Source: an uncultured archaeon
GTDB lineage: Archaea; Asgardarchaeota; Thorarchaeia; Thorarchaeales; Thorarchaeaceae
Assembly: GCA_964473825.1 (NCBI GenBank)
Contig: CAYYQL010000036.1
Coordinates: 1 to 26,020, forward strand
DNA length: 26,020 nt
Reading direction: 5' to 3'
The translations under genes and the position numbers were made by a program. Position 1 is the stretch's first letter; each line of letters begins with the position of its first letter. Below are positions 21,244 through 26,020 of this stretch, piece by piece. A model generated the notes under the pieces. It searched no databases. It was not told the origin of the DNA and saw only the letters and a list, made by a program, of their open reading frames with translations.

Positions 21244-21378
21244 ATATCTCTCAGCTTGGACACGCTTGATCTAGTCGATAATCGTCGGAATCACATCGAA
21301 CAAGTCGCCGACGATGCCGAAGTCTGCAATGTCAAATATCGGCGCTTCTGGGTCTTTGTTCACTGCAATTATGATATC
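21244..21378 (-). pseudogene. etfA: 3' relic of electron transfer flavoprotein alpha subunit (etfA/fixB)
   Basis: Minus strand from 21378: [42 protein letters not shown], the EtfA C-terminal signature; no start or N-terminal part; TAG at 21273-21271. Confidence 0.85.
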
Positions 21379-22558
21379 ACCCACTCTCGGACTCCTCTTC
21401 CGTCCAGAACAGCGTTATCCCCCAGTAATTGCCATAGGTCATACCATCAAAAATCGCCCGAACTGCGATGCATGTGGTTCCATCCGCTCCCCGATGTATC
21501 AAGACAGGATCAAAGGGCTCGTCAGTCTTCGGGAGAAGCTCAGTCTTTGAGACCGTACCTGACAGCTCGTTCTCGATCAGAATTGTGTGACCATCAAAAG
21601 ATGTCAGAATGACATCAGCATCTGAGTCCTCATCGAAGTTGCCAGCTGTTGCGCCGCTCCATCCAGATGAGTACGACCAGGTGTAAGGAGTCAAGTCCGA
21701 TTGAAACGGTACTTGGATGAAAGCGAGTTGACCTGTCATATCCTCTGTGTTCGTGGCCATCACGATTTCGTCAGAGCCATCCCCGTCAACATCAAGAGCC
21801 TGCAGGTAGACATCACGTTCTAAGTATATTGACGGGGGCAACTCGAGAGTTGCGGTGGCAGTAGAGGAAGAGAAGGGATACAGAATCGTCAGATTGTGCT
21901 CGGGCTGAGCAAAGACAATCTCGTCATTACCGTCACCATCGAAATCATGGGAGAGCACGGCTGAGAAATGATCTGACAGAGTCAAGTTACGTTCTTCAAT
22001 CAGATTCCAGCTATCTGTGACCAAGAAAAGGAGAAGTCGCTTAGGTGGCCCGCTGGTGATCATACCGATCAGAGTACCATTCTGAGTACTGACGGGGAAG
22101 AGTCGTTGTATGAAATCCCCGTTCGTGAGCCTGCTTACCACCTCGGCCTGAAAGGTGTCGGTACCGTTCCCGATCATGATTATGAGTGACCCGGAGTTGT
22201 TCACTGTACAGATATCCGTGGCTGCATCGCCATCGAGGTCACCAACCAAGAGCTCTCCATACCCGTCAACCTCTGCCAGAACTGACGCGTTCTGAAACGA
22301 CCCGTCAGGGTTCTGAAGGACTATCTCCACCGTGTAGAGGCTGGCCAAGATGAAGTCCTCGAGAGAGTCGTTGTTCACATCCGCAACCTTGACTGTGACA
22401 TAGGGGATGCCAGAGATGCCGAATCTAAGTCGGATGCTCTACGAACTAAACCGCTCGCTGTCCGTCGGTGGAAAGACTTGAAAGACTACGACGACAGAAA
22501 CGCCTACAACCAAGACTGTGATGACCGAAGCAAGAATGATCCTCTGCCTTCTATCCAT
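21377..22558 (-). pseudogene. Membrane-anchored FG-GAP/VCBS-repeat protein, copy 2, interrupted by an in-frame TAG at codon 40
   Basis: MDRRQRIILASVITVLVVGVSVVVVFQVFPPTDSERFSS*SIRLRF... continues in frame into the 22378 ORF; DLDGD, DFDGDGNDEI, DVDGDGSDEI repeats; colinear with 22636-23937. Confidence 0.8.
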
Positions 22559-22580
22559 ATTTCCAACTCCTTACTATTGG

Positions 22581-22601
22581 TGTAGAATGATGTTCACATA
22601 G
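22581..22601. repeat. 21-bp direct repeat, copy A (3' tip of the protease gene)
   Basis: TGTAGAATGATGTTCACATAG, identical to 23959-23979. Confidence 0.9.
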
Positions 22602-22635
22602 CGTCATCAGTCTTCGGCCCATGGCCCCAAACTCC

Positions 22636-23937
22636 TCATTGCCCATCTTCTGCATAGAACAGGACTATCTCCCAGAAGTGAAGAGGGATTTCTTCCCATT
22701 TCGCCAGAACACCGATACTTGGAACACTGTCTTCACCAAGATGAAGCAGAAAAGGTCCGAGAGGGTCCGTGGTCTTAGGAAGGAGTTCGGTCTGTGACAC
22801 CGTGCCTGTGAACTCGTTCTCGATGAGGATTGTGTAGTCATCATAGGATGTGAGGACGATGTCCATGTCCGAGTCCACATCGAAATCACAGGCTGTTGCA
22901 CCGCTCCATCCTGACGCATAGGTCCAGATGCTGTAAGATGGGTCTGACTCTGTCGTAATCTTGAGGATCAGGAGTTGACCTGTCATCTCCCAGGTATTGG
23001 CTGCCACCACTAGCTCCTTTGACCCATCACCCGTCATGTCAACCATCATCATCCACGCATCGCGCTCTGTATAGGTTGGGATAGGTAGCTCCACGTATCT
23101 TGTCGGGGTTGTGGAGAAGGGATGAATGATGGTCAGGTTTCCACTTGTCTGGAGTACAGCAACATCGTCGTTGCCATCCTCATCGAAGTCGTGCCGCAAG
23201 ACAGCAATGGGATAGCCCGAGATGCTCACCGAGATCTCCTCAACGAGATGAAGACTGCCGTTCAGAGAGAAGAAGAAGACATTCCTGTCTTCCTCACTGG
23301 TTAGGATACCTAGCCCGGGGCCGTCCTCTGTTGAGAGTGTGAACAGTCTCCAGATGATACCCTCCACGAGAATTGGGGTTTCGGTTCGCTCGATGTGTCG
23401 GCTGCTGTTGACTGACATGAAGACAACCTTCCTAGGAGATCCAGCTGTCACAGCACCAATCACTGGTCCTGCGTCTGTTGAGAGGGAGAACCATCTATCG
23501 ATAGTGCTATCAGTCGTGACCTCGATATCCCTCTGGTCGGGGAACGCGCCAGTGCCATTTCCAAAGGCAATCAGCAGGGATTGCGCGGACCTGCGAGCGC
23601 AGATATCGAGGTGACCATCTCCGTCCAGATCATACACGGCCAGCCCTCCTCCATCGGACTCGAGGATCACTGAAGTGTTGGGAAATGAGCCATCAGTGTT
23701 CTGGATAGCCAGTTCTACGGTGCTTATGGTTCCGACAATGAGATCGTCGTTGGAGTCGGAGTTCACATCAGCGAGTTTCACCGACACCGAGGGCGTTGAT
23801 GTGTTCACTCTGATAGTCTGGGAGGTGAAGCGCTCGCTGACCTTCGGGGGAAGGAGCTGGAGAGCTACGATAAGCAAGGCACCTATTGCCACCACCATAA
23901 CGATTGCAGTCAGTATCATCTTCCGTCTACTATCCAT
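22636..23937 (-). CDS. Membrane-anchored FG-GAP/VCBS-repeat (beta-propeller) protein, copy 1
   Basis: N-terminal TM/signal anchor; DVNSDSNDDL, DLDGDGHLDI, DFDEDGNDDV, DMTGDGSKEL, DFDVDSDMDI Ca-binding loops; SD AAGGAG. Confidence 0.85.
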   Translation of the reverse strand: MDSRRKMILTAIVMVVAIGALLIVALQLLPPKVSERFTSQTIRVNTSTPSVSVKLADVNSDSNDDLIVGTISTVELAIQNTDGSFPNTSVILESDGGGLAVYDLDGDGHLDICARRSAQSLLIAFGNGTGAFPDQRDIEVTTDSTIDRWFSLSTDAGPVIGAVTAGSPRKVVFMSVNSSRHIERTETPILVEGIIWRLFTLSTEDGPGLGILTSEEDRNVFFFSLNGSLHLVEEISVSISGYPIAVLRHDFDEDGNDDVAVLQTSGNLTIIHPFSTTPTRYVELPIPTYTERDAWMMMVDMTGDGSKELVVAANTWEMTGQLLILKITTESDPSYSIWTYASGWSGATACDFDVDSDMDIVLTSYDDYTILIENEFTGTVSQTELLPKTTDPLGPFLLHLGEDSVPSIGVLAKWEEIPLHFWEIVLFYAEDGQ

Positions 23938-23954
23938 GTTGCCGACTCCTTATG

Positions 23955-25604
23955 TTAATGTAGAATGATGTTCACATAGTCTGCAGCCACACTGCCGGTC
24001 ACTGTGGTATGAGGAGGATAGGGTTCATAGACCTGAGGGTTGAACTCCGCAATGGTTCCCCAGCAAGACAAAGCCCACCACCAAGACTGAGCAGTATCTC
24101 CATCAGGATCATGATTGAGCCTTGTACAGAATTCAGTCTTCTCCCAATTCGAGGCAGCATCCATTATCGATGCGTCTTCGTATGGTGGCCTGCACACAGC
24201 TTCCTGTGGCGGGTCAATATCGGGTCCGGTAACATACTCATCAGCAAGGTGAAAGAAAGCATGAGCAAGCTCATGGGTAATCGCAAGGTAACTCAACCAG
24301 CCGGTCCACGTCCCACTATCATGTGGCCAGTATCTTGGCAGGTGTATCTTTCCAAGTCCACGTAGGCTCCCCTGTATGGGATTGCCCTGAGGGTCCTTCG
24401 AGAACTGCATCACCGCATAGGGTGTGAAGTTGTTCAGCCAGTGGACATTCACATTAGTATCTGGGTCATTCCACATCTGGCCGCCAGTGTAGATGTCAAT
24501 CCTTGTTATGATGAGTTGCTCTTCAAATGCATCCCATGCATGTGCAACGAATTCGTGCAACCCGGCGATGAAATCATTCAGATACTCGTCTGAAGGATTC
24601 CACTCGACTGATACAATCAGCTGGAGATCAAGTGGGACATACTTGCTCTCGCTCCTTTCCAAGCCAAGGTAGACAAGCTGCCACTGGCGATAATGACCTG
24701 CCTTGATCTCCAATTCAACTTCATATATGTCTGCATCTGGCATATATGATGACACGTCAACCGTCGTTTCGTATGATTGATAGATTATCACCTCATGCAC
24801 TAGCTGGCCATTTACTCTAAGACGTAGATACCGATGGTACGGATCATCCGATTCCACTGCTACACGGATTCTCTCATCAAATGCACCGCTGCCATCATTC
24901 ACGAAGACCTTCCGCTGTATCTGGGAAACATAGATCTGTGGCATTGCCTCGTTTCCGCCCAGGTCAGCCGAGGTATGCACTTGCGAGTGCATCCCGTTCT
25001 CAATGTATGCATATTCAAGGGCCCAACCCTTAGAGTAAGCCCCATGCCGTACTTCGAATATGATCTCATGAGGACCATCGGAGAGATACTGTGCAACTGT
25101 GCCAGAATGTCTGGTTGTGGAATCCACCTCTTCATACACCTTCTGGCCGTCCAGATAGATTCTGAAGTAACGTGCGTAGGTTTCATAGGGGTTGTAGAAA
25201 GAGAACTCCAGATTGACCCAAGTTTGCGATGCGGTTGGATGGTCAATCCAGACATGCTTGGTGATCCTCGCAATCGAGATATCGGGCAAGTACTCACCTG
25301 GGCTTAGGTCCTCGCGGTGGTAGAAGGATTTGAGAGTCTCATTGTTGCCAGCAATCTCACGGTCGCTCTCTGATGTAGGGTTGGGATGCAGGAGTTCTAG
25401 AGTCTGATTGTAGTCGATGTTGCCATACGGAGGCTCAGACTTTACTTCTCTATCGAAACTGATGCCCGTTGTAGATGCCACTGTGCTGTTGCCTGGTCGA
25501 GTTCCCGGAGAGAGGGTGTCATATTGAAACGTACTGGCGGAAACGCTTGGTATCCCGGCTCTTAGAAACGAGAGTACCAGAAATGTACATAGAATGGTTC
25601 TCAT
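23955..25604 (-). CDS. Secreted zinc metalloprotease: two tandem beta-rich repeats plus a C-terminal CLCA-like catalytic domain
   Basis: Signal peptide from ATG 25604 (MRTILCTFLVLSFLRAGIPSVSA); HELAHAFFHLADEY; ASIM...EFCTRLNH...Q...SCWGTI. Confidence 0.8.
   Translation of the reverse strand: MRTILCTFLVLSFLRAGIPSVSASTFQYDTLSPGTRPGNSTVASTTGISFDREVKSEPPYGNIDYNQTLELLHPNPTSESDREIAGNNETLKSFYHREDLSPGEYLPDISIARITKHVWIDHPTASQTWVNLEFSFYNPYETYARYFRIYLDGQKVYEEVDSTTRHSGTVAQYLSDGPHEIIFEVRHGAYSKGWALEYAYIENGMHSQVHTSADLGGNEAMPQIYVSQIQRKVFVNDGSGAFDERIRVAVESDDPYHRYLRLRVNGQLVHEVIIYQSYETTVDVSSYMPDADIYEVELEIKAGHYRQWQLVYLGLERSESKYVPLDLQLIVSVEWNPSDEYLNDFIAGLHEFVAHAWDAFEEQLIITRIDIYTGGQMWNDPDTNVNVHWLNNFTPYAVMQFSKDPQGNPIQGSLRGLGKIHLPRYWPHDSGTWTGWLSYLAITHELAHAFFHLADEYVTGPDIDPPQEAVCRPPYEDASIMDAASNWEKTEFCTRLNHDPDGDTAQSWWWALSCWGTIAEFNPQVYEPYPPHTTVTGSVAADYVNIILH
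23959..23979. repeat. 21-bp direct repeat, copy B
   Basis: Same 21-mer; encodes part of the protease C-terminus YVNIILH. Confidence 0.9.
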
Positions 25605-25678: not shown

Positions 25679-26020
25679 GCTCTGTGTGAAAAGTCACCTC
25701 CCGGCATACTCCAGATAATTGGAACGATTCATATTATGCAGGATTACCTTGGGCAGTAGTTCTTGCCGTTGCTTCCGGTGCGTCCGTGACTGCAGGCTCC
25801 CACCGAATCGCACCTTCATCATGCTGAAAACGGTCTCCACAGGGCTCCTCTGTACATACTCGTGGAGTCGCCTCCACTTGTCAGGGTTTCGGTGGTACTC
25901 CAGGATCAACTCCCTGTAGCCACGGTGGCCCCGGGACCGGGGGCGTAGTCGCTCCTTAGGCTCGATCGCATGATAGACCCCACGGTCAGCGATGGACTGG
26001 ACGTTTCGTCGGGAGATGTA
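25679..26020 (-). mobile_element. Right end of an IS5-family insertion sequence
   Basis: Transposase 3' end plus candidate terminal IR GCTCTGTGTGAAAAG (25679-25693, loosely IS903-like); visibly higher GC than the flank. Confidence 0.65.
25694..26020 (-). CDS. IS5-family DDE transposase, C-terminal part (runs off the window end)
   Basis: Open from 26020: YISRRNVQSIADRGVYHAIEPK...YVQRSPVETVFSMMKVRFGGSLQSR...QELLPKVILHN; Y-x2-R-x3-E-x6-K (YREK) motif. Confidence 0.85.
   Translation of the reverse strand, partial: YISRRNVQSIADRGVYHAIEPKERLRPRSRGHRGYRELILEYHRNPDKWRRLHEYVQRSPVETVFSMMKVRFGGSLQSRTHRKQRQELLPKVILHNMNRSNYLEYAGR

Follow-up and report, generated by a model that had tools for sequence, protein, structure and literature searches.

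The contig CAYYQL010000036.1 of an uncultured archaeon (NCBI GenBank assembly GCA_964473825.1; Asgardarchaeota, Thorarchaeaceae) was analyzed over positions 1 to 26,020 of its forward strand, and this whole 26,020-nucleotide (nt) stretch is called the window below. Towards its high-numbered end lies a module consisting of a gene for a secreted zinc metalloprotease with a CLCA-like catalytic domain and, downstream of it, two genes for FG-GAP β-propeller proteins. All of its features are on the minus strand; amino acid (aa) positions of the protease are those of P0001, the product of its longest open reading frame (ORF).

25694–26020, minus strand: IS5-family transposase, 3′ fragment only, at the end of the contig (NCBIfam transpos_IS5_2, 7e-14; Pfam DDE_Tnp_1)
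23955–25604, minus strand: protease gene, encoding a secreted zinc metalloprotease of CLCA type (549 aa when counted from Met32 of P0001), in an ORF that stays open as far as GTG 25697
25536–25604, minus strand: Sec-type signal peptide (aa 32–54, ending SVSA), seen in the sequence and matched by similar hydrophobic N-termini in all orthologues
25323–25535, minus strand: linker, poorly conserved in the orthologue alignment, with an invariant NST sequon (aa 70–72) and a predicted local distance difference test (pLDDT) score <50
24648–25322, minus strand: two tandem jelly-roll β-sandwiches resembling carbohydrate-binding modules (CBMs; aa ~126–237 and 240–350)
23958–24635, minus strand: metzincin catalytic domain at the C-terminus, of CLCA (CLCAsin) type (aa 355–580)
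24234–24275, minus strand: zinc-binding motif HELAHAFFHLADEY (aa 475–488; H475, E476, H479, D486, E487, Y488)
24093–24194, minus strand: C502, Met-turn ASIM (M512), EFC524-x4-H529 and DPDGDT535, that is, the Met-turn and a candidate second metal site
23938–23954, minus strand: 17-nt intergenic spacer with a Shine–Dalgarno (SD)-like AAGGAG
22636–23937, minus strand: FG-GAP propeller gene 1 (P0002, 433 aa; ATG 23937), identified by Pfam matches and propeller alignment
22581–22601, minus strand: relic of the protease-gene 3′ end (YVNIILH), 21/21 nt identical to 23959–23979
21377–22558, minus strand: FG-GAP propeller gene 2 (P0003 plus an N-terminal anchor), interrupted by TAG 22441–22439

The longest protease ORF runs from 25697 to 23955 (minus strand), and the likely true start is ATG 25604 (Met32), with a TATA-like TTTTATAC ~50 nt upstream of it. 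Since the orthologues start with a hydrophobic signal sequence and Met32 is followed by one ending in SVSA, the product is most likely a Sec-exported protein of 549 aa, as judged from sequence; the database gene call (508 aa) takes an internal GTG as its start, so that the signal peptide is missing, and ATG 25604 fits the orthologues better. Towards the C-terminus, ASIMD occupies aa 509–513 and EFCTRLNHDPDGDT aa 522–535, the final residue is His, and the gene closes with TAA at 23957–23955. An initial annotation, made from the letters of the window, had described a secreted protease followed, after a 17-nt gap containing AAGGAG, by an N-anchored FG-GAP protein, and every feature that it quoted is present in the sequence. 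Its further description of the CLCA-like domain as C-terminal and devoid of a VWA domain also holds, the protein ending at the catalytic domain, as do the absence of the long Cys-rich insert (26 residues from the Asp ligand to the Met-turn, against 71 in CLCA1) and the His in place of the motif Gly. Upstream, the IS5-family fragment stops 90 nt before the protease start and runs off the contig, thereby bounding the module; no functional link to the neighboring genes (an AlkZ-like glycosylase, DUF1028, ABC exporters, EndoIII and others) was seen in the window.

The catalytic domain displays two features of CLCA proteins, namely an HExxHxxxGxxDEY-type motif with His, His and Asp ligands and a nearby Tyr, and an ASIM Met-turn. 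In CLCA1, the catalytic zinc site comprises His156 (with E157), His160 and Asp167, with Tyr169 nearby and Met238 in the Met-turn, and a second zinc ion is bound by Cys187, Cys250 and His255 (10.1101/2025.10.18.683246). The spacings in P0001 are those of CLCA1: four residues from the first to the second His, seven to the Asp and two to the Tyr, then 12 from the Met to the Cys and five to the last His. T535 is invariant in 45 aligned sequences, in which E487 is present in 40 and Y488 in 43. Within the Thorarchaeota family, C502, C524 and H529 are invariant, as are H475, H479, D486 and M512, and C502 together with C524-x4-H529 forms, by position, a candidate CLCA1-like second zinc site. In igalysins, the second zinc site draws on three Cys, one located two residues ahead of the Met and two at helix C (10.1101/2025.10.18.683246); here, Ser510 stands two residues before M512, and a Ser is found there in 34 of 45 sequences. 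The Gly position of the motif is variable (G in 13, H in 9 and F in 8 of 45) and is not a conserved ligand. That this Gly is not kept and that Tyr488 varies might be taken to indicate a non-catalytic scaffold, as in some CLCA paralogues with substituted sites, and substituted active sites are indeed common in CLCAs (PMC3650047); however, H475, E476, H479, D486 and M512 are invariant in all 45–47 aligned relatives, and we consider a pseudoprotease highly improbable.

The family to which this domain belongs was addressed through its relatives and its predicted structure. The Pfam gathering thresholds are 25.6 bits for CLCA (PF08434) and 26 bits for Peptidase_M64 (PF09471). Among 45 distant relatives, the CLCA model matches 12, with 27.8 bits in one (the P0039 segment, above the cut-off) and ~18 bits in the 11 others, whereas the M64 model matches only three; the M64 matches span only ~25–30 residues at the motif and, at 16.4–18.1 bits, lie below the cut-off. 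Searching PDB sequences with the protease (phmmer) gave no match, and with the family profile only the zinc motif of M64 proteins was matched (E 0.003–0.006). An AlphaFold2 model of the whole protein from a five-sequence alignment left the catalytic domain at pLDDT <50, and an alignment of 45 sequences of the domain was used instead, yielding a model with pLDDT 92. In a fold search against the ESM Atlas, in which both sides are predicted models, the top match was a bacterial VWA protein (template modeling (TM) score 0.76), and eukaryotic PF08434 clusters were matched with TM scores of 0.71–0.72 over 200–207 of 231 residues (root mean squared deviation 3.4–3.7). Language-model features placed CLCA at the top (0.92 and 0.91), with M64 next (0.89). 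On the basis of the fold search, these features and the Pfam matches in distant relatives, CLCA is the nearest named family, and we conclude that the protease belongs to an unannotated sister family of the CLCAsins within the CLCA/igalysin lineage and is not a member of PF08434 as now defined. The CLCA assignment made initially is thus supported through relatives and structure; the opposite outcome, in which unrelated metzincins would have been the best hits and CLCA would not have been matched, did not occur.

Close relatives are few. Among 5.8 billion clusters, only four full-length orthologues of the protease were found (45–54% identity), all of which start with a signal peptide. Any protease match at all was obtained in 16 of 400 genomes of the phylum; full-length close orthologues are limited to a few among the 85 genomes of the family, with none in either congener. 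The sampled metagenomes that carry the window DNA are microbial mats from one study, and no RNA data set was listed among them. An exhaustive profile search with the C-terminal domain returned 365 representatives at E<1e-3, most of them domains within proteins of 500–2000 aa. Named relatives come from Zixibacteria, Bacteroidota and other phyla bearing the type IX secretion system (T9SS), Anaerolineae, Armatimonadota and, in one case, Thermoplasmata, and an annotation as protease is almost absent among them. Eukaryotic CLCA sequences were not recovered: both the family profile run against longer proteins and the PF08434-tagged relative P0174 yielded only prokaryotic proteins. Of 149 distant relatives, 16 have FG-GAP repeats and the protease domain in a single chain, with the repeats on the N-terminal side; in ~14, a VWA domain directly follows the protease domain (the CLCA arrangement), and SBBP, BNR or sortilin propellers occur in many others. 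A second, more distant family of CLCA-like proteases (P0030; loci L023 and L026; 24–28% identity, ~530–600 aa) is present in other Asgard genomes, one of them labeled Thorarchaeota.

The product of the first downstream gene, P0002, has a basic and hydrophobic N-terminal anchor and five DxDxDG-type Ca loops, and is matched above cut-off by both FG-GAP_3 (PF13517; 65.0 bits, 9.4e-18) and FG-GAP (PF01839; 45.4 bits, 6.9e-12); P0003 scores 55.4 and 31.5 bits, respectively. The Ca-binding DxDxDG loops are conserved in the propeller alignment, and all propellers examined have an anchor, at either the N- or the C-terminus. P0002 also contains an additional, blade-like insert of ~48 aa (aa ~175–222; 23386–23536) that repeats the preceding blade and is missing from the second copy and from all orthologues.

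A second FG-GAP paralogue is present, as the initial annotation had stated, although the ORF that it had noted (from GTG 22378) is only the part following an in-frame stop codon. The paralogue starts at ATG 22558, 77 nt past P0002, is 41–47% identical to the first, and has TAG as codon 40 (22441–22439), which is CAG in P0002; beyond it, the same frame leads into the ORF from GTG 22378. The spacer that precedes it repeats the last protease codons and the SD sequence: the 21 nt CTATGTGAACATCATTCTACA that close the protease gene (23979–23959) recur exactly at 22601–22581, in front of a gene that is itself only ~50–65% identical to its paralogue in the DNA flanking this repeat. The exact recurrence of the 21 nt together with the SD sequence identifies the second copy as a tandem duplicate of a unit made up of protease tail, SD sequence and propeller gene. 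The TAG is present at depths of ~75 and ~63 in Logan contigs from microbial mats (runs X1 and X2, respectively, which may be the samples that the genome came from), and in run X3 (2021), from a related strain with ~3% differences in gene 2, a G at 22441 (plus strand) gives CAG (Gln). The second paralogue is therefore intact in this sister strain and was inactivated very recently in the strain of the window. A reading of the TAG as pyrrolysine was rejected, as PylS was not found in the genome (95.7% complete) and the reads show a strain polymorphism; an in-frame TAG in the propeller of genome G315 was likewise dismissed because it lies upstream of the likely start and not inside the gene. The X3 strain also shows ~30 differing sites within ~170 nt of propeller 2 (22076–22244), with few elsewhere in the module.

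The linkage between protease and propeller extends beyond the window. An anchored FG-GAP gene lies 1–28 nt downstream of the protease in the window and in loci L002, L003, L004 and L006 (the same as L017 and identical to contig C14 of G334, a genome in the same family as that of the window), and L005 ends 90 aa into an anchor-bearing ORF downstream of the protease. The adjacency thus recurs in every close orthologue with downstream sequence, and the non-recurrence that would have spoken against the initial proposal was not seen. The propeller subfamily is found in 11 of the 86 family genomes, and upstream of nearly every copy stands a protease gene or a 5′-truncated protease remnant, L039 being the only one that shows none. 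Remnants start at aa 282 (L018), 481 (L007, the same as L022), 498 (second cassette of L002), 529 (L025), 538 (L027) and 573 (copy 2 in the window), and decayed protease tails precede the propeller in L034 and L035. In L025 and L027, homology sets in sharply at one shared point, with upstream flanks that are not related. The two cassettes of L002 (5982–7585 and 11479–12976) form a sharp mosaic, in which the protease tails are 90–95% identical, the first two thirds of the propellers 50–65% and the last third 97–98%; the propeller pair of the window is a faint version of the same pattern. Orthologous propellers are only 24–38% identical where the proteases are 48–57% identical, and within the protease, conservation of the catalytic domain (54–62%) is on a par with that of the remainder (47–63%).

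Such remnants raise the question of whether the pair could be an effector–immunity system, in which the protease would act as a weapon against the surface proteins of neighbors, the propeller would be the inhibitor of the producer, and the cassettes would represent orphan immunity genes like those of contact-dependent inhibition (CDI) and Rhs systems. That truncated remnants of differing length always adjoin an intact propeller gene, that three genomes hold only a remnant and a propeller, that the L025/L027 cassette has a sharp common 5′ edge between unrelated flanks and that divergence is about twice as fast in the propeller as in the protease would all be understandable on these terms. Polymorphic toxins vary at their C-terminal tip, however, whereas here the C-terminal catalytic domain is no less conserved than the remainder of the protease; the near-identity of the L002 tails in the face of divergent propeller cores indicates that propeller variation does not track protease variation; the same protease domain is fused to a propeller in 16 of 149 relatives, although immunity proteins are not fused to their toxins; and a 400-aa propeller would be atypically large for an immunity protein. 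Given that a variable tip is lacking and that the orphan tails correspond to the resident protease, the ‘orphan module’ pattern is the only trait shared with polymorphic toxin–immunity systems, and we regard this explanation as unlikely.

The same data bear on a second alternative, namely that the propeller is an independent adhesin or receptor under diversifying selection (for instance, by viruses or changing ligands) and the protease a co-inherited neighbor that at most processes or sheds it, without a stable complex. Survival of propeller genes after protease loss, the mosaic of the L002 cassettes and the fast divergence of the propellers would be expected from such loosely coupled cargo, as would the position of the module in an accessory stretch bounded on one side by the IS5 fragment and on the other by an etfA 3′-end relic, and the prediction of a protease–propeller complex is weak (see below). 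By contrast, the very tight, SD-linked spacing is kept across genera that share only ~50% protein identity, almost every member of the propeller subfamily has protease sequence immediately upstream, and single-chain fusions exist in relatives. Loose coupling is possible rather than probable, but remains a substantial alternative.

The etfA relic is a ~130-nt copy of the 3′ end of this gene at 21250–21377 of the window, just past propeller 2. The true etfA and etfB genes lie on contig C60, where the etfA 3′ end is 91% identical, and a third copy of the 3′ end (79%) is found 2.8 kb downstream of etfA, beyond a secreted protein with NosD/β-helix and PKD domains; the matching stretches on this contig are G000:C60:3345–3421 and 408–535 (locus L045). 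In three runs, contigs branch at 21368, consistent with a repeat. The 3′ end of etfA has thus probably received successive surface-protein cargo, with the protease module as the cargo of an island.

The explanation that we favor, and to which we assign an even chance of being correct, is an accessory surface module of a microbial-mat archaeon, in which the propeller tethers the protease, targets it, or both. The product of the first gene would be a Sec-exported zinc endopeptidase composed of a sequon-bearing linker, two jelly rolls and the C-terminal metzincin domain, with the CBM-like jelly rolls probably binding glycan or substrate. The second gene, translated from its own SD sequence after 17 nt, would yield a membrane-anchored, Ca-binding, outward-facing FG-GAP β-propeller, which may supply in trans the ligand-binding module that is fused to the protease in many bacterial relatives; given these single-chain fusions, the pair looks like a split form of a common design combining a propeller with a CLCA-like protease. 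The propeller could hold at the cell surface a protease that has no anchor of its own, pick its target, or serve both purposes, and it would be the fast-evolving and duplicating part of the module, with cassettes of protease 3′ tail and propeller gene being copied and outliving the protease. The structure of the genes, the identity of the domains, the conserved catalytic residues, the recurring pair and the fusions in relatives are observed; we infer proteolytic activity, physical binding of the two proteins, and tethering or targeting.

A complex prediction for protease aa 126–580 and propeller aa 36–433 gave a median score of 0.53 (runs 0.53, 0.00 and 0.62), against 0.07 for the best control. 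Of 80 solved complexes, 58 reached the mark applied, as did two of 110 mismatched pairs; scores at the mark of no more than 0.60 were obtained for only seven of the 80 solved complexes and for both of the passing mismatches. Agreement between the runs amounts to at least 0% of contacts, and the pLDDT of the partners is at least 81. The modeling therefore lends weak support to binding between protease and propeller.

Several observations weigh against a tethering or targeting module built on a CLCA-type protease. One of the three complex runs scored 0.00. When P0001 itself was compared with Pfam and NCBIfam, no protease model scored above cut-off and CLCA was not matched even at E≤1, and the sole profile match was to Pfam M64 (E 0.005), confined to the HExxH region and below the cut-off. 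In the active site, Tyr488 is replaced by Gly in two orthologues, and the motif Gly by H, N or G among them. No propeller gene lies downstream of the protease in a sister clade (L019–L021; ~40% identity, ending VHP). Intact propellers are found in G386, G392, G394, G315 and G314 with the protease reduced to a 3′ remnant, and their persistence in these five genomes implies that the propeller is useful without its protease. Finally, large secreted proteins often contain FG-GAP repeats, so that the fusions in relatives are only moderate evidence.

In the sister clade, a convergent gene encoding ~195 aa flanks that of the protease (L019:838–1416, L020:1407–2003 and L021:2975–3568). The proteins of L019 and L020, from the same genus, are clearly homologous and hydrophobic at both termini, with a basic tail at the C-terminal one; that of L021 has no comparable C-terminus and its homology is uncertain.

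A further, more speculative proposal, which we think rather improbable, takes the protease 3′ tail, SD sequence and propeller gene to be a recombination cassette: blades 1–5 may be swapped or stockpiled by way of conserved flanks, formed by the protease tail on one side and the final third of the propeller gene on the other, in what would be a variable Asgard system of surface recognition or antagonism. If this were true, the propellers might be specificity or immunity subunits of a system based on a CLCA-type protease.

CLCA1 has only recently been recognized as the founder of its own metzincin family. Prokaryotic relatives had been described as rare: in the survey of Lenart et al. (2013), CLCA_N proteins were patchily distributed in prokaryotes, with Thermococcus as the only archaeal genus, and lacked conserved gene neighborhoods, M64 was the closest known family, and transfer from animals was proposed (PMC3650047). 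The 365 representatives found here (E<1e-3) make up a large and mostly unannotated prokaryotic family, which weakens the view that only isolated genes, derived from animals, are involved, and the locus offers the first conserved partner gene for such proteases. Judged by its residues, the locus would be a compact, VWA-less Asgard version with CLCA1-like positions for both metal sites, and its 230-residue domain could serve as a minimal model for CLCAsin catalysis. The module is no evidence for an Asgard origin of eukaryotic CLCAs or integrins, because the family occurs in only ~3% of the genomes of the phylum, lies in an accessory stretch and has its nearest relatives in bacteria.

The locus represents a further form of an enzyme family that is known, if poorly annotated, and not a new kind of system, and its components can be compared with several that are established. 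With the CLCA family (PF08434, CLCAsins), the protease shares the metzincin fold, Asp as third ligand, the ASIM Met-turn and the lack of a pro-domain; its zinc motif likewise has an extra residue ahead of the Gly position and then DEY, and the Cys 12 residues past the Met and the His five further on correspond in position to C250 and H255 of CLCA1. It differs in that the domain is C-terminal, behind two jelly rolls, without VWA, BSR or FnIII domains, in that the ~45-residue insert between the Asp ligand and the Met-turn is missing, and in that the motif Gly is H, N or G and the protein escapes the Pfam model. The HExxHxxx(G)xxDEY motif is also that of the M64 igalysins (the IgA protease of Thomasclavelia ramosa, and 3P1V and 4DF9 from Bacteroides), but Ser rather than Cys stands two residues before the Met, and the score of P0001 remains below the M64 threshold.

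The propellers resemble those of integrin α subunits in displaying DxDxDG Ca loops on an extracellular, membrane-anchored protein, but have neither thigh and calf domains nor a β-subunit or VWA partner, and the anchor of P0002 is N-terminal; as FG-GAP propellers are common in prokaryotes (PMC3192720), no specific integrin ancestry is implied. An analogy exists with the orphan toxin-tip/immunity cassettes of CDI and Rhs systems, in which 5′-truncated remnants of the upstream gene are likewise attached to intact downstream genes and are sometimes arrayed beside the full copy; here, by contrast, the remnant tails match the resident protease and carry no different tip, and the downstream propeller is the variable part. 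Another parallel is provided by the propeller-linked CLCA-like proteases of bacteria, large, secreted, multidomain proteins with many T9SS-tailed examples, which contain the same catalytic domain (HMMER E 1e-22 to 1e-6); here, unlike in these, a gene of its own encodes the propeller, which is membrane-anchored, and the protease has only 549 aa.

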